From an uncultured Nitrospiraceae bacterium (GTDB taxonomy: Bacteria; Nitrospirota; Thermodesulfovibrionia; Thermodesulfovibrionales; Dissulfurispiraceae): DNA of 64,000 nt. A program made the translations under genes and the position numbers. Each line of letters starts with the position of its first letter. Position 1 is the stretch's first letter. This document shows positions 39,530-53,685 of the stretch, piece after piece. Location of the stretch: contig CAVSHF010000003.1 in assembly GCA_963727805.1 (NCBI GenBank), positions 1,024,001-1,088,000 on the forward strand. Direction: 5' to 3'. The notes under the pieces are model-generated. The model did not search any database and was not told the DNA's origin. It saw nothing but the letters and a program-made list of their open reading frames with translations.

Positions 39530-40240
39530 ATGGCAACTACAATAAAAAGTAAAAACGCAAAGATCCTTAACCTCCTCAGATACATACCTTTTTTCGAGGG
39601 GCTTTCCGAAAAGGAATTTTTCGATTTGAAGCATATATTCGTAGAAAGAAATTATGCGAGGAATAAAACCATCCTCCTCGAAGAAGATACCCTTAATTAC
39701 ATGTACATAATCCTTTCAGGGAAGGTGAAGGTAGTGCATTCCGGCCTGGACGGCAAGGAACACATCGTCGCCATTCACAAAAAAGGAGATTTCTTCGGCG
39801 AAATGGCCCTCCTTGACGGTAAGACATCTCCCGCCACTGTGGTGGCCCTCGAAGACACATTAATTGCGATTATCTCAAAAAAGGACTTTGAAAAGTACTT
39901 ACTGAAAAACGACAAAGTATTGAGGCAGACCGTCTCGATCCTCTGCTCCCGGTTGCGAGAGGCATGGATGATGATCAAGGTCTTAAGCCTGCCCAATGCA
40001 GAGGACAGGGTCAGAGCTGTGATTAAGATCCTCAGCAATTATTATGGGTTCAAGGATGCACGAGGAACTATCCTCAGTTCCAACCTCACGCACCAGAATA
40101 TCGCCGATTATTCGCTTGTCTCACGTGAGACCGTCACCAGACTGATGAACCGCTTGGCAAAAGAGGGCGAGATCGAAATTCTTGAAAACAGGGACATCGT
40201 TTTGAAACCTTCTTTTACACAAAAGATGCTTGAACTGTAA
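39530..40240 (+). CDS. Crp/Fnr family transcriptional regulator
   Basis: FFGEMALL cNMP-binding fold; HTH SRETVTR. Confidence 0.93.
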   Translation: MATTIKSKNAKILNLLRYIPFFEGLSEKEFFDLKHIFVERNYARNKTILLEEDTLNYMYIILSGKVKVVHSGLDGKEHIVAIHKKGDFFGEMALLDGKTSPATVVALEDTLIAIISKKDFEKYLLKNDKVLRQTVSILCSRLREAWMMIKVLSLPNAEDRVRAVIKILSNYYGFKDARGTILSSNLTHQNIADYSLVSRETVTRLMNRLAKEGEIEILENRDIVLKPSFTQKMLEL

Positions 40241-40488
40241 CCGTTGTCACCATTCATCGGGCTGTTCTACCATATGCTTTAATTAGAAATCCTGACGGAG
40301 CACTATTATGGTTGAGGTCCTCTGAATTCTCATGATACATGTCCCTCAGCTCACCAGTGCCTATGCTTTGCCGTCCGGTGCCTAAGACACCCTAATCACC
40401 TTATGCATCAATGCAGCTATCTTAAAAGCATCAAGCTACAACCTTCCCGTGATGCACGAATCTTCATTTATTTGTATTATAATCACCT

Positions 40489-41265
40489 ATGTGGAACATA
40501 CGCATGAGAGCCTCAAAACAGGCGAAAAGTGGGAAATCAGGTGCGGAAATTCCGACTGAAATTCACATTTCAGGCGCAGAGGGAATTTATGAAGAGCCTG
40601 ATATATCAAAAATATGCTCGGAACTCATACGCCGCGCGTTGTTCCACCAGCGGGGAAGACCTGACAGGATTGTCCTCACCGTTGAAGAGATAAAAGAAAG
40701 TCCACTAAAAATCTCTCTCCTACCGATCAGAACACTCGAATGTATTTCTCCTGAGATAGCGTGGGAGGTGATCGTTCAGCACATGATGGAACATGGTGTT
40801 TCGGTTCAGGCGTTGAAGACCGCTTTCAACGTCCTGAAATCCGAAAAGACCATGAGGGGTGCTGCGCTTATAACAGTAAAAACGGGCAGGCGCCGGGAAA
40901 CAGACAGGGAAAGAGGGATCAGAGTATCCCGCCTAGGCATGGATAAGACATCTGAAAAAAAACTGGCGCGCAAACTCTCAGCCCTGCACATAAATAATCC
41001 TACCGTCAAAGAAGCCTTTATCCTCGCTTCCAAGGTTGCTTCATGCAAGGATGTCGTTGCCGAAGTCTGCATCTCCGATGATCCCAATTACACAACCGGA
41101 TACATAGCTTCCCGCACAACTGGGTATCTGAGAATACCCAACATCAAGAAGCCCGGTGAGTTGCACGGCGGAAGGGTCTTCTTTGTCAGAGAAAATTTCG
41201 GCAAGCAAAAAGTCATAGACTACCTTGAACGAAGATCGGTGCTCCTGGTATGCACCCATGAGTAA
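40489..41265 (+). CDS. bioW: 6-carboxyhexanoate-CoA ligase
   Basis: IRMRAS, HISGAE, MRGA, RGIRVS, SDDPNYTTGY, GGRVFF. Confidence 0.92.
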   Translation: MWNIRMRASKQAKSGKSGAEIPTEIHISGAEGIYEEPDISKICSELIRRALFHQRGRPDRIVLTVEEIKESPLKISLLPIRTLECISPEIAWEVIVQHMMEHGVSVQALKTAFNVLKSEKTMRGAALITVKTGRRRETDRERGIRVSRLGMDKTSEKKLARKLSALHINNPTVKEAFILASKVASCKDVVAEVCISDDPNYTTGYIASRTTGYLRIPNIKKPGELHGGRVFFVRENFGKQKVIDYLERRSVLLVCTHE

Positions 41266-42250
41266 AAGAATCGTAATTATCGGTAATCCCGTGGCTGGCG
41301 GCGGTGCAAGAGAAAAGATATCCAAAGCTTTTTCCATTCTCAAGGCTGCGGGACACAATGCTGAAGTGAAGTTGACCTCCCAAAAAGGCGATGCTGAATC
41401 ATTTGCCCGTGAAGAATCCGCACGATCCGACACCCTGGTTATCGCCGCGGGAGGCGACGGCACATACAATGAAGTGGCCAACGGACTTCTCCATTCAGAC
41501 ACCCCCCTTGCCATCCTCCCGTTGGGCACGACATCAGTTCTCGCAAGGGAATTAGGCATTCCACTGAATACTGAGAAAGCCCTTGAAGTAGCCCTGAACG
41601 GCCGGATCGAGAAGGTCCATCTGGGGAGGATTTCATGGAATCCGTACTCACTTCCCTTTGCCAAAGAGGCGACGAAGAGTATTGAACCTGCTCGTCACTT
41701 TTTGTTGATGGCCGGTATCGGATATGATGGGAGCGCAGTATATGGCGTCAATGAAATGCTTAAAAAATATTCCGGCAAGCTAGCTTATATATTAAGCGGC
41801 CTCTGCTCCATCGTTAATTATCATCCGGATCCGCTTATATTACGTGCTGAGATCGGACATCGGGACAATATCGAAGGAGGAATGTTCCGTATTCAGAGGA
41901 AATACTGCTCAGTGACCGATGATTCACTACACTCTAGTGGATATACCGTTATTGTGAGCAAGGCTGCCTGTTATGGTGGAGACATGAAAATAACGCCGGA
42001 CGCGAGCTTAGCATCGCCTTTTCTCTATGTCTTTGTTGGGCACAAAAAGGGAAGGCTCAATCTTATTCGGCATTTGGCCGCCATAATTGCCGGAAGAACA
42101 CTTACCCTGAAGGATATCAGCTATTTCAGGACGGACGAAATCACGATCGAAGGCAATAGCCACATCCAGCTCGATGGTGACTACGCCGGGACAACACCCG
42201 TGAAAATCGACGTTGTACGCAATGCCCTAAATCTTATAGTGCCTAAATAA
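41258..42250 (+). CDS. Diacylglycerol/lipid kinase family protein
   Basis: NPVAG, GGDGT, LPLGT, QLDGD. Confidence 0.92.
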   Translation: MSKRIVIIGNPVAGGGAREKISKAFSILKAAGHNAEVKLTSQKGDAESFAREESARSDTLVIAAGGDGTYNEVANGLLHSDTPLAILPLGTTSVLARELGIPLNTEKALEVALNGRIEKVHLGRISWNPYSLPFAKEATKSIEPARHFLLMAGIGYDGSAVYGVNEMLKKYSGKLAYILSGLCSIVNYHPDPLILRAEIGHRDNIEGGMFRIQRKYCSVTDDSLHSSGYTVIVSKAACYGGDMKITPDASLASPFLYVFVGHKKGRLNLIRHLAAIIAGRTLTLKDISYFRTDEITIEGNSHIQLDGDYAGTTPVKIDVVRNALNLIVPK

Positions 42251-42254
42251 ATAG

Positions 42255-42944
42255 TTATTGGGGGTTAACAATCGACCTCAGCGCTCCAAGGTTCCTAATA
42301 ACAATCTTGCCGCTCACATCCTTAATGAGTCCCGATTTTCTAAATCTGCTCAGGACCCTGATCGATGTCTCGACGGTAGTCCCTACCATCTCCGCAATAT
42401 CCTGCTTAGTAAGTCGCATTGCAATCGCAATCTCTCCCGCAGTGGACTTTTCGCCAGTCTTTTCTGCGAGTTTCAAAAGGAGGGCTGCAATCCGCGATTC
42501 TACCCGTTCGAGGGCGACATTTTTTAGCGTATCGTGAAGTTCTCGGACACGTTCGCCTAAATTGGCGGTAATATCATACATGATGTTCGGAAACCTTTCG
42601 ATGATACGCATCAGGTTATGGCGGGATATCCGGTTTGTTTCACAATCCCGCATCGCAATGGCGTTTGCCGGATATGGAAAGCCCTTTAAAACTGCAAAAC
42701 CTCCAAAAAATTCACCTGGAGATAGTAGCTCAATGATGATTTCCTTGCCATCATGGGATAACTTTGTGATCTTCACCTCCCCGTCAAAAAGAACGTAGAA
42801 CCAGTTCGAGGGGTCTCCTTCGGAAAAAATCGTCTCTTTCTTGCGAAAAGATTTTCGCTCGATGTAGGAACCAATCTCACCAATTTCTTCTTCGCTGAGT
42901 CCGGAGAATAAGGGTATCTGCCTAAGATATTTATTGTCAGTCAT
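42255..42944 (-). CDS. Crp/Fnr family transcriptional regulator
   Basis: YPANA; HTH LTKQDIAEMVGTTVETSIR. Confidence 0.93.
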   Translation of the reverse strand: MTDNKYLRQIPLFSGLSEEEIGEIGSYIERKSFRKKETIFSEGDPSNWFYVLFDGEVKITKLSHDGKEIIIELLSPGEFFGGFAVLKGFPYPANAIAMRDCETNRISRHNLMRIIERFPNIMYDITANLGERVRELHDTLKNVALERVESRIAALLLKLAEKTGEKSTAGEIAIAMRLTKQDIAEMVGTTVETSIRVLSRFRKSGLIKDVSGKIVIRNLGALRSIVNPQ

Positions 42945-43357
42945 TTTAGTAATGCATAATCCTGAATGGATAGTTTCTGAGCAGTTATCCCGATGCCTCA
43001 ATTAATATAAATCAATGAGTTATAATAGTCAATATCATTGAAATCATTTGTCAAGCCAATTTAGAAATGTCTTCTTTTTCACAAAAATAGAAACCTCGAC
43101 AGTAAAACGCCAATTGTTTTCGCCGCTGTCATTGCAAATCTTTTCTCTTATACGATTCTTGCTTTCATGGATGATTAGCGCTAGATCGATAATAATCGTC
43201 TTTACTTCCAGACACTCAAGGCGGTTATCTCAGACGTGAGGCCTTATTCCTGAAGTCATCTTCAGAATGACATTTTAAGGAATTATCCAGCTTTAAAATG
43301 AGAAAACTATCAGGGAATAATTATTCAAATTAGGGTAAGGTAAGATTAGTATGACAA

Positions 43358-43909
43358 CTACTGACCACCATCTCTGCCACTGCCGCTGCTCATCAATTTC
43401 TTTTCCACATCATCATAAAGTTTTATATGTACTTCAACATTACTCTTGTCCTGTAGAAAATAATTGATATACATTACATCCTGTCTTCCGAATGTGATCT
43501 GTCTGTAAAAAGGTCTCACTTCGTATCCGATAATTTCGGAATTGTAGGTAAGTATCTTGCTTATCCAGGACTCCATAAAATCAGGATGCCAGCTGACGAA
43601 TCTCTCCGCCGTTTCTAAGGCCTCCTTGGCCGGCAGGTCTTTTATGACCCGATAGTCGAATGCAGGCGCAAAAATATCAAAAGTATATCCGCTGTCCTTC
43701 CGAACGAGGAATGCCACAGTAGCAATATCATCATAATGGTTTGCACCGTACAATATCACCGTAAAGTTGCCTGTTATCCCAGTCTTATCCGCGAGCTGCG
43801 TCTTAAGATAGTTCTGATTAAGAGAGCACGCTCCGCATAAGAGAGCGAATAAAACAACGGAGGCGGCAATGAGCATTGTACCAACTCGTCGCATATAAAT
43901 ATGATACAA
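43358..43909 (-). CDS. Putative lipoprotein
   Basis: Hydrophobic leader ending in a lipobox-like LCGAC. Confidence 0.65.
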   Translation of the reverse strand: MYHIYMRRVGTMLIAASVVLFALLCGACSLNQNYLKTQLADKTGITGNFTVILYGANHYDDIATVAFLVRKDSGYTFDIFAPAFDYRVIKDLPAKEALETAERFVSWHPDFMESWISKILTYNSEIIGYEVRPFYRQITFGRQDVMYINYFLQDKSNVEVHIKLYDDVEKKLMSSGSGRDGGQ

Positions 43910-44139: not shown

Positions 44140-44242
44140 GATAGGCTACTAAAATAATTGCACATAGCCAGATAGTAGTGGATCTGGTTGCGCTGTCTGA
44201 CCCGACGCATTGCAATTATTAAATATCGAGTTTCGCCCGGCT

Positions 44243-45583
44243 CTATCCGATCTGCCCGCTTTTGGTGCTGCTCTGCACAGCATGGTACAAGCGTTCCACC
44301 AAGGCCTGATTGTATCCATGTGAGGTCATGTTGGCGATAATGCGTCCTCTGATGGGCAAGCCGAGGAGATAGAGGTCTCCGATCAGGTCCAATATCTTGT
44401 GGCGCACGAATTCGTCAGGATAACGAAGCTCCGTATTGATGACCTTGCCGTCGTAAAGAATGATGTGGGAATGAAGATATCCGCCGCCGACCTTTCCAAG
44501 CTTCTGGGCCATCTCGATATTCTCAAAGGTGTTGAAGGAGCGGGCAGGGGCTATCTCCTTTACAAAAGATTCGCTTTCAGGATTGAATGTAAGAATCTGT
44601 TCGCCTATAGGTAGCGGATAGTCAACCCTCATCGATATTTCGAACCCCTCAAAGGGCTCCGCATAGAGATGCTTTTCGCGCGGCTCCTCGTGTCCCACTC
44701 CTATCTTGCGGCGAATGACCGCAACCTTGGTGAAGGCAGGCTGTTCATCTATCCCTGCCTCTTCTATGAGGTCGCAGAAATCCTTGGCGGACCCATCTAT
44801 GTTCGGTATCTCCGCTTCAACCTTTATGAGCACGTTGGTTATGCCGTACATGGAAAGAACTGCCATCAGATGTTCAACGGTGCGCACCCGCTGCCTACCG
44901 TTGTTCAGGGTGGTAGAATTGGCAAAGAAGGTCTTCGATGCGGCAGTCTGGGTAAAATCCTCAAGGGAAGTGATATGTCCACGGATGTTATGGCCGTCAA
45001 GAGTTTGAAAGATGATCCCTTCGTTGATCCCGAGAGGACTCAGAATGACACCGGTGTTCCGGCCGCTCAGGAGCCCTATCCCGTTCAGGAGCACATTTCC
45101 TCTGAGTGTGCGCTGAGGCATAGGGGAATCCACTACTTCCACCATCCCCGCCTGCACCGAGAGGTCGGCACTGACGATCTCAAGCTCGGTATCCGAGGGC
45201 AAGGTCGCGCCGCTTCTGGAAGACCGGTGCTTAAGGGCGGACGCCACCTTATCGAGTAAAACTTCCAGATGTAGGGGTTTTTCCAGAAAATCGTAGGCTC
45301 CGGCCTTTATGGCGGCAACTGCCGCCTCGATACCGGCATGTCCGCTCATCATGATGACGGGGAGCTCGGGGCAGCGTTCATGCAGTCGTTTCAGGATTTG
45401 CATGCCGTCCATACTCGGGAGCCAGATATCCAACAGGACGAGAGAGGGCTCCATGGTGTCGAGCCTCTGCCACAAGCTGTCAGCATCCGTAAATACGACG
45501 GTCTGATACCCCTCGTCCTTCAGGATGTCCGCTATGGTGGAACAGATGGAAGATTCGTCGTCTACTATATAAATAGGGTTCAT
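44243..45583 (-). CDS. lpxC: Response-regulator receiver fused to UDP-3-O-acyl-GlcNAc deacetylase
   Basis: REC (VDDE, LLDIWLP, MSG, EKP) followed by LpxC motifs QRTL, TVEHL, EIPNIDGS, APARSF, RHKILDLIGDL, SH. Confidence 0.9.
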   Translation of the reverse strand: MNPIYIVDDESSICSTIADILKDEGYQTVVFTDADSLWQRLDTMEPSLVLLDIWLPSMDGMQILKRLHERCPELPVIMMSGHAGIEAAVAAIKAGAYDFLEKPLHLEVLLDKVASALKHRSSRSGATLPSDTELEIVSADLSVQAGMVEVVDSPMPQRTLRGNVLLNGIGLLSGRNTGVILSPLGINEGIIFQTLDGHNIRGHITSLEDFTQTAASKTFFANSTTLNNGRQRVRTVEHLMAVLSMYGITNVLIKVEAEIPNIDGSAKDFCDLIEEAGIDEQPAFTKVAVIRRKIGVGHEEPREKHLYAEPFEGFEISMRVDYPLPIGEQILTFNPESESFVKEIAPARSFNTFENIEMAQKLGKVGGGYLHSHIILYDGKVINTELRYPDEFVRHKILDLIGDLYLLGLPIRGRIIANMTSHGYNQALVERLYHAVQSSTKSGQIG

Positions 45584-45803
45584 ATAAGACACCTGATGTT
45601 CCTCTCGGTCTGAATTGAGGATAGAGTAAAACAATAAAGGACGATTGTCAAGGACATGCTGTTTGCGCCTGTACCAGGATAATCAAGATACCACATATCG
45701 TTTCTGAAGACGCCCATAATGATTTTGCCAGATCCGTTAGCAGTATCAGGTCCATTTATTTAATACGATAACCCCAAGTTTTGTAATGACCGGTGCGGTT
45801 AGG

Positions 45804-46997
45804 TCAATACATAGATCCTTTATCAACCTTTCGATTTTCCCCTAGAGGGAAATAGAGTAAAAAAGCGGAGCCTCTTTCAGGGGCGCTGTTGACGGAGATT
45901 AAACCTCCGTGGTCCTCCATAATCTTCTTCGCGAGCGACAGTCCAAGACCAACACTCCTCTTCGATATCTTTGTGGTGAAAAAAGGTTCGAATATCTTAT
46001 CGATGACTTCCGGTGGAATTCCTGCGCTGGTGTCCCTGATTTCAACTACTGCATATTGTTGCGATTCCACCGATCTCATGGAAGTGGATACGAACAGTTC
46101 GCCCCCCTGTGGCATAGCTTCGACGGCATTGGTAATCAGATTGCCGATTGCCTGCTTGGTCTGCTCCTTGTCGAGCATAATATCAGGGCTATCAGAGAAC
46201 GTGGTTTTAATAGTTATGTCGTGTTCCTTACACACTTCCTTATAGCTGTTGAGTACTTCATCAATAACGGCATGAAGATTATGTCTTTCGAGATGAGGCA
46301 CAGCCATTCTTGAATAATCCAGGACATCCTTCAGTGTCTGTTCGAGGCCCAGCACCTCTGCGACGATAGCGCCTGCATATTCTTTTTCCATTGTTCCATC
46401 TTTCAGTACAGAGAGCAAACGCCTTGCAAATCCCCCGACTGAGGTCAGGGGATTTCTTAGCTCATGAGCAACATTCGCCGATATCCGACCGAGGGCCGCC
46501 AGCTTTTCACTTTGCGCGAGTTGTTCCTGGATATCGACGTACTCGGTTATGTCCCTGACGGCTGCAGTAACGAGCAAGCCTTCATAAGTCTGAAGAGGAC
46601 TCAGACTAATATCGGCCCTGAATTCAGATCCATCCTTTCTTAACCCGAAGATTTTGGTACCAGACCCCATTGTGCGGACGCGAGGACTCGAAAAAAAATC
46701 CATGACATTTTTTTTATGACGATGCCTGAAACGTTCCGGGATGAGGATATCTAATGTCTTGCCAGTCAATTCGTCCGAGGCATAGCCGAAAAGCCTTTCG
46801 GTCTGGGCATTGATCATAACAATTGCGTTATCGCTGCTGATGAAAATCATCGCATCTGGCGCAGCTGCAAGAAGCTCTTTGTAGCGCCTCTGAATTCGTT
46901 GGAATTCAACCTCGCAGGTCTCCAGCTCATTGAGCTTGTGACGCATATCATCAAGTTCCTGCACCAGCTGGTCTTTTGATTTACAGATATCGTTCAT
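45804..46997 (-). CDS. Cytoplasmic PAS sensor histidine kinase
   Basis: PAS (LIPERFR, RKDGSEF), AHELRNPL, FEPFFTTK, GLGL. Confidence 0.93.
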   Translation of the reverse strand: MNDICKSKDQLVQELDDMRHKLNELETCEVEFQRIQRRYKELLAAAPDAMIFISSDNAIVMINAQTERLFGYASDELTGKTLDILIPERFRHRHKKNVMDFFSSPRVRTMGSGTKIFGLRKDGSEFRADISLSPLQTYEGLLVTAAVRDITEYVDIQEQLAQSEKLAALGRISANVAHELRNPLTSVGGFARRLLSVLKDGTMEKEYAGAIVAEVLGLEQTLKDVLDYSRMAVPHLERHNLHAVIDEVLNSYKEVCKEHDITIKTTFSDSPDIMLDKEQTKQAIGNLITNAVEAMPQGGELFVSTSMRSVESQQYAVVEIRDTSAGIPPEVIDKIFEPFFTTKISKRSVGLGLSLAKKIMEDHGGLISVNSAPERGSAFLLYFPLGENRKVDKGSMY

Positions 46998-47143: not shown

Positions 47144-47488
47144 TCATTTGCATTGCTTGACACATTGACTTGCATCTCCTTCAGCACTGCAAGACTGTCC
47201 GACTGCATAACAATAGTTTTTCTCGTCCTTGGAGCAGCCACAAATAACCGTGTCGGCAGCAACGGTCTTATCTTCGCTGCTTTCATGAGTCCGTGTCGAA
47301 CATGTCGTGTTTTGTATATCCCACGATCCATCATTACACTTATACCCATAACCGGACTGGCAGGTGAATGATCCCGAAGAGTAGAGAACTCCGTTATATT
47401 TGCAATTCTCCATGGCCCATCCTGTGCCGGTAATCAGACTCACAACAGCAATCAATATTACTCCCCTGATAAGTTTGTTGCAGTTCAT
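47144..47488 (-). CDS. Small secreted Cys-rich protein
   Basis: Signal peptide; 10 Cys in the mature part; GGAGGA RBS. Confidence 0.7.
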   Translation of the reverse strand: MNCNKLIRGVILIAVVSLITGTGWAMENCKYNGVLYSSGSFTCQSGYGYKCNDGSWDIQNTTCSTRTHESSEDKTVAADTVICGCSKDEKNYCYAVGQSCSAEGDASQCVKQCK

Positions 47489-49654: not shown

Positions 49655-51529
49655 TTAGGTGATCAGACCTAACCCCTTTCTCTTTTCTGTAATATGATTT
49701 ATTATGAGTTCGGCCGCTCTTGCGGGGTCTGGCTCCACTGCAAAACAAGCGCCGAATACATCGTTCAACCCGGAGGTAGCAAGTTCGGTGATTTTTTTGC
49801 TTCCTGCAATAGGGGGCATAACACCGAGTACGGTAAATATCCCACTGGCCATGGCATAAAAGGCGATTGTCGCTGCCTTTTCGGAATACCATTCGGGGGC
49901 TGCCCCTGCTAGAGGTAATTTGTCTATGTCAACACCTATGGCATTGGCCAGTGCGCATGCAATGACGATTATTCTGGAATTGTCGACGCACGAGCCGACA
50001 TGTAGTGACGGCGGAATATTGAGAAGCCCACATATCTCTTTGAGTCCCGGCCCTGCCAACTCTTTCGCTTCCGGCACCTGAAGCCCGGCCTTGCCAGCTG
50101 CGACATTTACGCATCCTGTCGTGAGTACCAAGATGTCATTTGCTATAAGAAGTTTGATCAGTTCGACATGACCATAATCCTGTTTTATCTTCGGGTTGTT
50201 GCAACCCACAACGCCAACCGCACCCTTTATCTTGCCGGCCTTAATGGCATCAATCAATGGCGTCAAGCTACCGCCAAGCGCACCCACGATGGATTCCACT
50301 GAAAATCCAGTCATATTCTTTACCGGCGATGTAGGAATATATACTTTGTCCTTATTCCGCCGTGCAAAATTCTCTACTGACTCCTTTACTATCCTGAATG
50401 CCTGTTCTTTGGCATTCTCCGGAGTGAATTCAACATGCTCCATAAATGGGAACTTGGCCTTATCGGATGTCGAATAGAGCTTGGTATGATAGCACTGGGC
50501 AACCTGTCCCAAAGATGGCATGATGCATTGGTAGTCGACGATAATGGATTCTACAGCTCCGGTAACCATGGTTAATTCTGTCATCAGGTGGTTTCCAGCC
50601 ATGGGTATCTTTTTCCGCATCATCAACTCATTACCGGTGCAGCAGAGGCCCGCGAGATTGATGCCTTTTGCGCCCTTCAATTTGGCAAGCTTAAGCATCT
50701 CTTTGTCTTCAACAGCCAATCCAACCATTTCGGACACCACAGGGCTATGCCCGTGAACTAAAATGTTGACCTGGTCCTCTTTGAGGACACCCAGGTTGAC
50801 TTCAGAAAAGCCCGGTTGGGGTGTGCCGAAGATGATATCGGACAGGTCCGTACCTATCATAGATCCACCGTAACCGTCCGCAAGACTGTTTCTGACAGCA
50901 TGCAACAGGATTGAGACATAATCGTTATCAACGCCCATATGAGTACGGTGCATTGTCTCTGATGTCTCTCTGTCTATGCCTCGTGGAATTACTTTCAGCT
51001 TTTTCCACAATTCAAGCCGCTGTTGCGGTGCCCTATTAATCAGAGTGATCCTTTCCTTTTTCATCCCATAATCTTCCATCATGGCTTCCGCAAGACGTTT
51101 AGCAATAACCTCGTTGCCAAGGCCGTTGATATCAATGCTGTATTCAGCAGCCAACTGCTTGAGCTTACCGGCATCCCTGATCGAGTATCCGGGCGCCTTC
51201 CCCTGGCCTATCTTATACAGAACTTCAACCAGATCGCGTCCATGATCCGAGTGTGATGCGGCCCCAGCAGCGATCATTCGCGCCAGATTCCTAGCAACCA
51301 TAATCTCTGCATCTGCCCCGCAAACCCCGTATCTTGGGCCTTCCCCGAATGGATCAATGCGGCATGGTCCCATAACGCATATTCGGCATGACACGCCCAG
51401 TTCGCAATATCCACACTGAGGCTCCTGTTTCTTGAATCTGTCCCAGACGGTTTCCACTCCGTCTTCACGCGCTTTTCTGATTGTCAGCTGGGCGTCTTTG
51501 CATATCGAAAGATTCGCGTATTCACTCAT
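49655..51529 (-). CDS. cooS: Anaerobic Ni,Fe carbon monoxide dehydrogenase catalytic subunit
   Basis: CGYC..SCRICVMGPC, HSDHGR, HGH, CCTGNE, DYQC, GCNN, TGC, GSCVDN, EKA. Confidence 0.97.
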   Translation of the reverse strand: MSEYANLSICKDAQLTIRKAREDGVETVWDRFKKQEPQCGYCELGVSCRICVMGPCRIDPFGEGPRYGVCGADAEIMVARNLARMIAAGAASHSDHGRDLVEVLYKIGQGKAPGYSIRDAGKLKQLAAEYSIDINGLGNEVIAKRLAEAMMEDYGMKKERITLINRAPQQRLELWKKLKVIPRGIDRETSETMHRTHMGVDNDYVSILLHAVRNSLADGYGGSMIGTDLSDIIFGTPQPGFSEVNLGVLKEDQVNILVHGHSPVVSEMVGLAVEDKEMLKLAKLKGAKGINLAGLCCTGNELMMRKKIPMAGNHLMTELTMVTGAVESIIVDYQCIMPSLGQVAQCYHTKLYSTSDKAKFPFMEHVEFTPENAKEQAFRIVKESVENFARRNKDKVYIPTSPVKNMTGFSVESIVGALGGSLTPLIDAIKAGKIKGAVGVVGCNNPKIKQDYGHVELIKLLIANDILVLTTGCVNVAAGKAGLQVPEAKELAGPGLKEICGLLNIPPSLHVGSCVDNSRIIVIACALANAIGVDIDKLPLAGAAPEWYSEKAATIAFYAMASGIFTVLGVMPPIAGSKKITELATSGLNDVFGACFAVEPDPARAAELIINHITEKRKGLGLIT

Positions 51530-52125
51530 GACTGCATCCTCCTTAATTCTTCCAATCTGTGTTTGTATCCCTTTAAAGACTGGTATGCGCCTTTCTCTTG
51601 CTCACCTGTTCTTATGCCCCGGTAGACCAGTGTCGACAGTTCGTCTGTATCCCTGTCCATTACCTTGTTGTAGTCTTCGAATAGGAGGGCGCCGACCTTG
51701 CAGACATCTACGCAGGCTGGGACTCTGCCTTCTTTCTGACGTGTGATGCACTGATCGCATTTATGGGCTGCCGTTTTATTGTTGGGATAGAGATGATACC
51801 TTACGACGCCGAAGGGACAGGCCATGGCGCACATGCCACAGTTGATGCAACGATCGGGGTTGATTAAAACTGTACCGGTCGAAGGCTCTCTAAATATGGC
51901 CTTTGTGAGACATGCCATCTCACAGGGCGCGGGGTCGCAATGCCTGCACTTATTCGGAAAAGGATCTTTGTTTCTAGATAACCCAATATGAATGCGGGGC
52001 CTGGACAGGACCGATTCATAAGGTGCTGAATAAGGCGAACCGCTTTTCGAGTGAGCAACGGCGCATGCGAAACGGCATTGAAGGCATCCCACGCAGCGCT
52101 CGGGTTTTACGACAACCACTTTCAT
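51526..52125 (-). CDS. cooF: CooF-like 4x[4Fe-4S] protein
   Basis: Four Cys clusters: CVGCLQC, CRHCDPAPC, CINCGMC, CDQC..PAC. Confidence 0.9.
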   Translation of the reverse strand: MKVVVVKPERCVGCLQCRFACAVAHSKSGSPYSAPYESVLSRPRIHIGLSRNKDPFPNKCRHCDPAPCEMACLTKAIFREPSTGTVLINPDRCINCGMCAMACPFGVVRYHLYPNNKTAAHKCDQCITRQKEGRVPACVDVCKVGALLFEDYNKVMDRDTDELSTLVYRGIRTGEQEKGAYQSLKGYKHRLEELRRMQS

Positions 52126-52136
52126 AAAAGCCTCCT

Positions 52137-53354
52137 TCATAAAGGGTAAAGTATGTCGGATATGCTGACCTCATTATCAACAATCTTCTGAGGATCGGCA
52201 TTAAGCGGCATGCCCTTTTTGATCAGATTTATATAGGTCCCTGCATCATCCGGACAATTGAAAAAGGCCATGCCGACAAGGATATTGTCTTTAACCGCCA
52301 GTTTCCGAAATTGTTTTAAATGCGGGAAATTCCTCTCAAATATGGTTGCCCCGGAGCCTTCCGTCATTACGCCTCCGGAGATGAGATGGAATGAATGGGT
52401 CTTGAGACTGTTCATCCCGATGCTTCCCTGATAAGGGACATCTCCACCCAACATATTCAAGGCTGCAAAATAACCCTGCTCAACTGCTACGGGCCAGAGC
52501 GCATTAATCCACGGCAACCGTCGGGCAACATCCATGGTCTCGCAGCAATCCCCCGCCGCATAAACACCCTCTGCCGATGTCTCCAGAAATTCATTGGTCA
52601 TGATTCCAAGGTCAACCTTTATTCCCGCTTTGCGAGCAATCTCGACCCTCGGCTTAACTCCTTTCCCGACGACTACGACATCGCTGACCAGTTCTGCACC
52701 TGATTTAAGTGCAACCACAACCCTATCTTCTTTCATATTAATGTCCGCGATATTGTCTTGCGTACGCACGCCAATGCCGGATTCACGGATCTCTTTTTCG
52801 ATAGATCGCGCAGATTTTTCATCCAATACCAGTGAAAGGGGATAAGGGGATGAAACAATCATCTCGACTTTGACGTTGCGCTCTATCAATCCATAAGCGG
52901 TCTTTATCCCCACAAACCCGCCGCCTAGCACTGTCGCCCTGTCTTTGACATATCGTTCGAGTTTCTTCGCATCACTCATGTAGCGCAGAGTGAAAATCTT
53001 CTTCTCCTCGTCACAATAATTCGGTTTTATAGCGTTGGCGCCTGTAGCGACAAGAACTTTGTCGTAGCTTATTTCCCTGCCGCCCGACATCGTAAGAACC
53101 TTCCTGCTTGCATCTATGGCTTCCACTTTTTCGCCAAAGATGAATTTTACATTGTCAGGATATTTCGCAACGTCCGATATATACATCTGATCTTCACGGA
53201 CAATCCTACCGAGATAATGCGTAAGTGCGCATCTGCAGTATGGAGAGTATTTTTCTTCTGATATAGCGGTTACAATCACCTGAGGGGAGAATTTCAGGAG
53301 GGTATCGAGGCAGGAAAGCCCTGCAGCACTCAGGCCTATGATGACAGCATGCAT
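52137..53354 (-). CDS. FAD/NAD(P)-dependent oxidoreductase (CODH-associated FNOR)
   Basis: IIGLSAAG, VATGA, LGGGFVG, YAAGDC. Confidence 0.9.
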   Translation of the reverse strand: MHAVIIGLSAAGLSCLDTLLKFSPQVIVTAISEEKYSPYCRCALTHYLGRIVREDQMYISDVAKYPDNVKFIFGEKVEAIDASRKVLTMSGGREISYDKVLVATGANAIKPNYCDEEKKIFTLRYMSDAKKLERYVKDRATVLGGGFVGIKTAYGLIERNVKVEMIVSSPYPLSLVLDEKSARSIEKEIRESGIGVRTQDNIADINMKEDRVVVALKSGAELVSDVVVVGKGVKPRVEIARKAGIKVDLGIMTNEFLETSAEGVYAAGDCCETMDVARRLPWINALWPVAVEQGYFAALNMLGGDVPYQGSIGMNSLKTHSFHLISGGVMTEGSGATIFERNFPHLKQFRKLAVKDNILVGMAFFNCPDDAGTYINLIKKGMPLNADPQKIVDNEVSISDILYPL

Positions 53355-53685
53355 ACTACAATCTCCTTTCAATACAAAAGCGTTATGACTTACATACGAA
53401 GGGAATTGATTGCAGAAGCTTTCTCGCGAATCAGAAAGACCGTCGTTATAGTCTTCTTTGTTCTATTTACGGTCATCATTTAGCCCCCCACAATTAAAGT
53501 ATACCGCAGTACAAAGTAAAATTAAAGGCCAGAACACCAGGCACTGATTTGCTGCTATATTTGTGAGGAGTTGATCTGTAAATAAGCACTTTCCTGGTAT
53601 ACCCAGATGTGGTTACTTGAACTGCACAACCAGACTGTTTATTATAGGGCAACCCATGCGATGTGACCGCTCATGTAGGTAAACC

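Follow-up and report, generated by a model that had tools for sequence, protein, structure and literature searches.

A gene of an uncultured Nitrospiraceae bacterium (GCA_963727805.1; Nitrospirota, Dissulfurispiraceae) joins the receiver domain (REC) of a two-component response regulator to LpxC, which catalyses the lipid A pathway's committed step and sets the lipid A flux. It lies on the minus strand of a 64,000-nt stretch of contig CAVSHF010000003.1 (positions 1,024,001 to 1,088,000), hereafter the window, with a soluble PAS histidine kinase gene just upstream. The question raised by this locus is whether LpxC can be controlled through a built-in receiver and, if so, by which kinase. Response regulators with an enzyme as output are of a known kind; CheB and PleD consist of a receiver, a linker, and an enzyme. 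A first-pass annotation of the window proposed direct two-component control of LpxC, with the adjacent kinase as the source of phosphate, or else a paralog with a different substrate. According to our analysis, the fusion is a second, likely horizontally acquired LpxC with an NtrX-type receiver, whose phosphorylation is likely set by a distant NtrY kinase and would probably raise deacetylase output. We give this combined reading about an even chance. Window coordinates are given as start..end and those of other contigs and loci with their labels.

The fusion gene and its product

A single minus-strand frame joins Response_reg (PF00072, 102.6 bits) and LpxC (PF03331, 243.4 bits). The LpxC part scored above the curated cut-offs (PF03331, 243.4 vs. 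27; TIGR00325, 205.3 vs. 187.25). From the domain profiles and homolog lengths, the gene was delimited to 44243..45583 and encodes 446 aa. ATG 45583 is the likely start rather than TTG 45634, since the best 120 homologs are 439–462 aa long and the TTG falls inside a promoter-like site. The best 120 homologs listed all carried both domains at 82–96% identity, and the close ones were labelled Nitrospirae or Nitrospirota.

The receiver (residues 1–118, 45230..45583, minus strand) was assigned by Pfam, NCBIfam, invariant columns, and the receiver tree. Among 52 aligned sequences, D8, D52, S80, F99, and K102 were invariant and D9 was near-invariant, so that the residue set of a phosphorylatable receiver is complete. 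A linker (approximately residues 119–153, 45125..45229, minus strand) leads to the LpxC domain (residues 157–433, 44285..45115, minus strand), which was delimited by alignment and model and differs from stand-alone LpxC by eight clade-wide changes and a short insertion at approximately residues 206–221. E237, H238, H395, K396, D399, D403, and H422 are present in this domain. Five of them (E237, H238, H395, D399, and H422) align to E78, H79, H238, D242, and H265 and were invariant in 78 of 78 aligned LpxC sequences; the equivalents of K239, K143, and D160 are also kept. LpxC numbering follows the alignment to P. aeruginosa chain 29ak_A and agrees with the E. coli numbers of PMC10254716. Profiles and alignment therefore agree with the first-pass annotation that one open reading frame carries an intact receiver fused to LpxC with the Zn and catalytic motifs retained, and that GIGLLSG replaces GxGLHSG (L172 where stand-alone LpxC usually has His).

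The AlphaFold model of the fusion had a mean pLDDT of 79.8 and a pTM of 0.67, with residues 120–139 of the linker predicted to be disordered (pLDDT <50). The modelled LpxC domain has the LpxC fold (Foldseek E 1e-27; rmsd 2.4 Å over 288 columns; TM 0.77–0.90 to targets). Judged by dN per region, the linker evolves faster than either domain. Both domains are under purifying selection, with dN/dS of 0.05–0.23 for REC and 0.06–0.19 for LpxC (15 pairs).

Origin of the receiver

In a receiver tree of 143 tips, 20 fusion receivers and 21 receivers of ntrY-adjacent NtrX proteins formed an exclusive clade of 41 (support 0.98). NtrX was also the best NCBIfam match for the receiver part. Over its full length, the fusion scored 121.3 bits with the NtrX model NF051870 (cut-off 600), and the AAA+ sigma-54 domain and the helix-turn-helix (HTH) domain were absent. 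By these sequence measures, the fusion is derived from NtrX and is not a member of the NtrX family. The host has a DUF4390-ntrY-ntrX cluster of its own on a contig other than that of the fusion (C5:1155340-1159366), in which ntrY occupies C5:1155951-1157981. The labels NtrY and NtrX are based on architecture, the DUF4390 neighbour (PMC13001219), and NtrX as the best NCBIfam match. The host NtrX-like protein scored 517.9 bits with the NCBIfam model, below the cut-off of 600.

A receiver profile was built from nine positions of ntrY-adjacent NtrX proteins of other genomes, which we take to be the partner-contact positions (27 rows, including one stray partial receiver). Among the 107 receivers of the genome, it ranked NtrX first (20.0) and the fusion second (14.8), the third scoring −0.4. 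With the matching kinase profile, NtrY came first (19.1) and the PAS kinase next to the fusion scored −17.0 (58 of 65 kinases parsed).

A 734-aa REC-AAA-LpxC protein with a weak AAA+ match was observed in a Nitrospina metagenome-assembled genome (MAG; L019:342-2543), and within the order of G067, 4 of 151 genomes (G515, G539, G499, and G527) had LpxC in frames of 727–739 aa. REC-AAA-LpxC is likely an intermediate form.

The stand-alone lpxC and its predicted sigma-54 control

A canonical stand-alone lpxC was found elsewhere in the genome (C3:1463445-1464248), together with rpoN, lpxB, lpxK, and a single lpxA. Local duplication of this gene as the source of the fusion was considered and rejected, as its product is 34% identical to the fused domain and a split with full support separates the two in the tree.

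Upstream regions were scanned with what we take to be the sigma-54 consensus. Stand-alone lpxC genes of this order were preceded by a site of at least 9/10 in 24 of 31 cases (0.06 expected), and the host gene had an 8/10 match at the same position as its order relatives. In the same scan, the other stand-alone groups were positive in 4 of 7 and 2 of 12 cases, and the fusions in 0 of 40.

In D. vulgaris, lpxC is the single target of the sigma-54 activator DVU2934 (PMC3333781), and lpxC of D. alaskensis carries, besides a sigma-54 site, an activator site at −101, and its expression goes up when the kinase is mutated (PMC4045070). Before the host stand-alone lpxC, 14 of 16 bases matched the Dde_3003 site as given in the latter paper, a level reached three times in the 3.9 Mb genome. 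Matches of at least 11/16 were present in 26 of 31 relatives (5.8 expected), in 15 of them with the best match 113–120 nt upstream. Before fusions, the matches were scattered without a common position (8/24, 3.9 expected; 4/16, 2.6 expected). In seven loci retrieved by receiver similarity, lpxC was located just upstream of kinase and NtrX-like genes. From the site match and the gene order, we infer that DVU2934 is an ortholog of the host NtrX-like protein; for Nitrospirota, the activator site may already be tabulated in the supplement of PMC3333781. On this evidence, the fusion took its receiver from the NtrX-type sigma-54 activator by which Desulfovibrio regulates lpxC.

Replacement of NtrX and lpxC by the fusion

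The phylum of genome G075, presumably SAR324, comprised 88 genomes, 86 of which had LpxC: 43 had a long frame only, 43 a short one only, and none had both. All 24 long-frame loci inspected (20 retrieved and 4 earlier) were REC-LpxC; the remaining 19 long-frame genomes were typed as fusion from frame length. Among the short-type genomes, ntrY was found in 14 of the 17 searched and was followed by a full NtrX in 14/14. In the fusion genomes, ntrY was present in 19/19, once at a contig edge, and NtrX followed in 0 of the 18 informative cases. A genome-wide search gave no NtrX-level match in 19/19 fusion genomes (best 363 bits or none); NtrX orthologs score at least 468 bits, and the controls were positive in 5/5. 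Judging by this gene content, the fusion takes the place of lpxC as well as of NtrX, and NtrY is retained.

In two further genomes (G079 and G081), ntrY directly preceded a related REC-LpxC, the sole LpxC found there, and three others (G076, G077, and G078) had ntrY and the fusion with no NtrX-level match. By their gene content, these genomes from separate lineages agree with the replacement pattern. Some sole-copy fusions were observed in a housekeeping-like setting, after a gene with an LptA/LptD-like domain (L015:2157-5883 and L016:2732-7299) or before nusB (L015 and L017:6001-7763).

Proposed mechanism

The fusion, its ancestry, the selection acting on it, its transfer, and the swap pattern are established at the sequence level, and they suggest the following course. 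An NtrY-type kinase would initially have controlled a sigma-54 activator targeting lpxC, as published for Desulfovibrio and suggested here by motifs. As trees and gene content suggest, the receiver of this activator would then have been joined to LpxC with loss of the AAA+ and DNA-binding parts and of the sigma-54 promoter, moving control from transcription to the protein. One subclade, as sequence comparison shows, has spread in the form of a single-gene unit to genomes of Nitrospirota, Desulfobulbales-like bacteria, and Myxococcota, most of which keep their own lpxC and NtrYX. In the host genome, one kinase would then serve two routes: a slow route, in which NtrX acts on the stand-alone lpxC, and a fast route, in which the fused enzyme is itself the target. 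The phosphorylated receiver would turn the enzyme up in the manner of CheB, if the sign of the ancestral circuit was retained: a sigma-54 activator requires phosphorylation for switching its target on, here lpxC, which points to activation.

NtrY is quite probably the partner of the fusion, judging from ancestry and gene content, and a direct effect of phosphorylation on catalysis seems somewhat more probable than not. Receiver ancestry, switch residues, purifying selection, and the swap of NtrX and lpxC in one phylum lend indirect support to two-component control of the LpxC protein, as the first-pass annotation proposed; its choice of the adjacent kinase as the source was not supported. A more far-reaching version describes a portable phosphorylation-gated LpxC, in which an activator receiver was grafted on, the substrate passage was remodelled for receiver dependence, and the product plugs into the NtrY of unrelated hosts. 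It fits the sequences, and we hold it tentatively, at a little less than an even chance.

Several points weigh against NtrY-driven activation. The contact-profile score mirrors ancestry as well as partner choice, and in the Desulfobulbales-like copies, with profile scores of 0.3, one of the contact positions shows drift. The phylum-wide replacement may be one evolutionary event, since the kin are not independent. A Leptospirales MAG (G068) has the fusion as sole LpxC, and NtrY was not found there with the query used; in G061, G063, and G071, ntrY lacks a neighbouring ntrX, but NtrX is present elsewhere in the genome. No fixed REC-LpxC contact is visible, given the pTM of the model and the disordered linker. 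In one close relative (L124), the REC part is frameshifted, and eight residues of the substrate passage differ from those of stand-alone LpxC. The sign could also be opposite, since alphaproteobacterial NtrYX lowers lpxC (PMC12444477, PMC7240162), and in D. alaskensis kinase loss raises lpxC (PMC4045070). By analogy with the latter system and with Bordetella PlrS (PMC4045070, PMC13001219), the phosphatase activity of an NtrY-type kinase may predominate during steady growth.

In four loci of the drifted kind (L004, L008, L009, and L014), a bulky residue was observed at receiver position 12, which is among the kinase-contact positions, and the acidic pair was followed by Gln. The kinase of the Desulfobulbales-like copies may, on this sequence evidence, have changed or been lost.

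NtrY could also be the partner without catalysis being gated, if phosphorylation altered the stability or location of the enzyme or if the receiver drained phosphate from NtrX. The disordered linker and the absence of a fixed domain contact in the model would fit such an effect, and the control of LpxC works through proteolysis in E. coli and through recruitment to the membrane in Neisseria (PMC12444477). A phosphate sink is conceivable in this host, where the fusion shares its kinase type with an intact NtrX, but it cannot apply in the 19 genomes without NtrX. The invariance of S80 and F99 in the 52 aligned sequences fits some output of the receiver and does not separate these options. We consider this alternative unlikely, though worth keeping in mind, and continue with NtrY-driven control of catalysis.

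Active site and enzyme function

Compared with stand-alone LpxC, the fused domain is changed at eight positions of the substrate passage: H19L, T191S, G193N, F194T, S211Y, A215H, K262M, and G264S (E. coli numbering; H19 is the label that we take for the His position replaced by L172). The His-to-Leu change noted in the first-pass annotation was thus real, and seven further clade-wide active-site changes had been missed. All eight were present in 18/18 subclade sequences, and the canonical residues were near-fixed in 30 stand-alone LpxC. F194 and K262 are substrate-pocket residues of LpxC (PMC10254716). The equivalents of S211 and A215 differed in 48/48 aligned fusions, other clades included. 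They lie in a region of low model confidence, and one may speculate that this is the place where the receiver acts.

The changes could mean that in this host the fused domain handles another acyl chain or another substrate, or that it is an enzyme of low activity retained for some other role, and a canonical LpxC is present in the same genome. However, the same eight changes occurred in 23–26 of 26 related fusions that are the sole LpxC found in their genomes. The sole-copy genomes checked had lpxA and lpxB (5/5) and mostly lpxK (3/4), so that the substituted enzyme most likely still performs the LpxC step; moreover, with one lpxA in the host, a second substrate source is not evident. The paralog with a different substrate suggested in the first-pass annotation became less likely, as 43 genomes of one phylum have no LpxC type other than this substituted enzyme. 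On these grounds, LpxC activity of the fused domain is very likely, and a changed function is decidedly unlikely.

Likely horizontal transfer of the second copy

In LpxC-domain trees (FastTree and IQ-TREE), the fused domains all grouped apart from the stand-alone ones, and the subclade of the window fusion was fully supported. It sat among sequences of the G075 phylum, with a support of only 48–60 for this donor placement. Of the 390 genomes of the class, 8 carried the subclade fusion, and in the order of G067 a frame of fusion length and score was found in 7 of 151 genomes. A stand-alone lpxC was also present in 14 of the 16 subclade genomes checked, and NtrX in 11 of 13; in either case, the two misses were G066 and G072.

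Comparison by blastn with L118-L121 and L124 delimited a unit of approximately 1.43 kb (44233..45662, minus strand), shared with these five closest copies at 91–95% nucleotide identity, each copy being in a different neighbourhood. Its upstream edge was sharp (45658–45662), and contigs of public runs had loose ends at 45654–45662. The dS of the fusion to the five copies was 0.1–0.25, and that of lpxC and ntrY of kin was 1.9 or saturated. GC3 of the fusion was 64%, vs. 54 ± 6% for 1269 long frames. This pattern suggests that the fusion is likely a second, horizontally acquired LpxC. At the unit edges, the 35 direct and 36 inverted repeat pairs contained nothing beyond chance; no attC-aimed search was made. 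An element of approximately 30 nt just outside the upstream edge was common to L118 (1360-1430), L120, L124, and runs X7 and X16, with different neighbouring genes; it could reflect an insertion-site preference.

The unit carries a candidate sigma-70-like promoter (45623..45651, minus strand; TTGACA at 45651-45646, a 17-nt spacer, and TAnnnT at 45628-45623). A consensus promoter scan found no site before the fusion, the candidate being below threshold and based on conservation; it was present in 6 of 16 subclade loci and travels with the gene. Contigs of two wetland RNA libraries covered related copies (3–15% divergent); these come from other organisms, may be DNA, and are not counted as evidence.

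The recent arrival, the sigma-70-like site in place of a sigma-54 site, the patchy distribution, and the one broken copy would also fit a constitutive spare LpxC that escapes sigma-54 control and in this host has an unphosphorylated receiver. Within the second-copy subclade, however, purifying selection acts on REC, and the NtrX-type contact residues are kept in this genome, which makes such a spare improbable.

The adjacent PAS kinase and remaining alternatives

As stated in the first-pass annotation, a soluble PAS histidine kinase lies just upstream of the fusion on the same strand (45804..46997, minus strand), 220 nt away. The domain scan of this 397-aa protein (His178) gave PAS 38–150, HisKA 169–231, and HATPase 276–386. 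No terminator-like site was found in the gap, and contigs of two public runs, both from one other study, bridge the kinase and the start or promoter of the fusion (X2 record 30, approximately 93% alike, and X5 record 22), so the adjacency exists in related strains. These features would fit a cognate pair. Yet, of 43 other clade loci examined (16 + 7 + 20), 41 had approximately 1 kb or more of upstream view (all except L011 and L123), and a kinase-like gene was directly upstream of the fusion in one of them (L214). Among the closest relatives of the kinase (8 loci, 7 of 67 family genomes), none had a receiver or lpxC within 1.5 kb. The H-box helix of the kinase belongs to another subfamily and matches two other host kinases at 14/18 positions; one of these is followed by a single-domain receiver, which has a second, near-identical copy in the genome. 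With 107 REC domains genome-wide, the earlier description of a kinase without any other partner could not be upheld. In addition, a 24-codon remnant of a repeat (45667..45738, minus strand) and the promoter-like site lie between the two genes. Pairing with the PAS kinase is unsupported because the adjacency is not conserved, the helix residues are mismatched, and the fusion has a promoter-like site of its own behind the gene remnant. The kinase is probably an unrelated bystander, and its role as cognate kinase is highly improbable. An assembly chimera is excluded for practical purposes by the 120/120 listed homologs with both domains and by full-length copies in genomes of several phyla, among them that of a cultured Desulfopila strain and an assembly consisting of one chromosome.

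Further kinases of the same helix subfamily were observed at C5:110563-111747, C3:997739-998770, and C3:2216995-2220224, mostly without a neighbouring receiver, and the two near-identical single-domain receivers are at C3:2219865 and C4:26355-26714. From its sequences, this set looks like a many-to-few signalling hub. The repeat (approximately 59–61 aa, with a conserved Trp-Tyr-Leu-Asp-Tyr core) was present in at least 14 host ORFs of 419–1947 aa, including C3:1459813-1461069, C3:50939-53311, and C3:1991320-2001932, with one copy 2.4 kb from the stand-alone lpxC; these proteins are probably surface-located or secreted.

Elsewhere in the window, three genes at 49655-53372 resemble an anaerobic CO dehydrogenase, an iron-sulfur protein, and a FAD oxidoreductase, as read from sequence. 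The region 39530-43001 contains a Crp/Fnr-type regulator (39530-40240), bioW, a diacylglycerol-kinase-family gene, and an ORF that is Crp-like by appearance (42255-43001, minus strand). Two small ORFs flanking the kinase and the fusion (43358-43909 and 47144-47488) had no Pfam match and are secreted- or lipoprotein-like, the second being Cys-rich.

Relation to known systems and significance

Among the closest known counterparts is the lpxC-dedicated system of Desulfovibrio (DVU2931/DVU2934 and Dde_3000/Dde_3003; PMC3333781, PMC4045070). Like the proposed system, it aims a kinase and a receiver at lpxC alone, and its activator and sigma-54 sites recur before the host stand-alone lpxC; however, its receiver drives a sigma-54 activator and transcription, whereas here the receiver is on the enzyme. 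With NtrY/NtrX and PlrS/PlrR(/PlrP, DUF4390), the fusion shares the NtrX-clade receiver, NtrX as best match, and an envelope-related output, but it has no AAA+ or DNA-binding domain (PMC7240162, PMC13001219). The effect of Rhodobacter NtrYX on lpxC is indirect and negative (PMC7240162).

Structures of stand-alone LpxC from P. aeruginosa, E. coli, and A. aeolicus share with the fusion the fold, the Zn ligands, and the equivalents of E78, H265, K239, K143, and D160; the fusion differs in its N-terminal receiver, the eight substrate-passage changes, and the short insertion. LpxC-FabZ (NF009667) is likewise LpxC fused to a second domain at a similar length, but its partner is a C-terminal dehydratase and not a signalling domain, and the fusion scored 174.8 bits, well below the cut-off of 465. 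With CheB and PleD, the layout is the same; the difference is that the output here is a core envelope biosynthesis enzyme and that gating is predicted.

The controls of LpxC described in PMC13333357 are proteolysis, LapB inhibition, and MurA stimulation, and not a built-in receiver; the word 'receiver' was absent from two recent reviews of LpxC control (PMC12444477, PMC13333357). Our literature search, which left supplements and most subscription journals (including response-regulator censuses) outside its scope, returned no description of a REC-LpxC fusion. By its layout, the fusion resembles the response regulators that have an enzyme as output, which are of a known kind; its own output is described in no paper that we found.

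Allosteric control of LpxC activity is presented as an open question in a 2026 review (PMC13333357). A receiver built into a natural LpxC would represent a new control mode and offer a handle on allosteric sites. NtrY, the signal of which is unsettled, would also gain a direct readout in the form of an enzyme. The exchange of NtrX and lpxC for one fused protein in half a phylum is a clear example of a shift of control from the promoter to the enzyme, and the locus itself is a warning that a neighbouring kinase need not be the partner of an adjacent receiver gene. If the fusion is indeed a portable switch, the host would gain a second, transcription-free switch on lipid A synthesis, and NtrY would sense lipid A flux in bacteria of several phyla.

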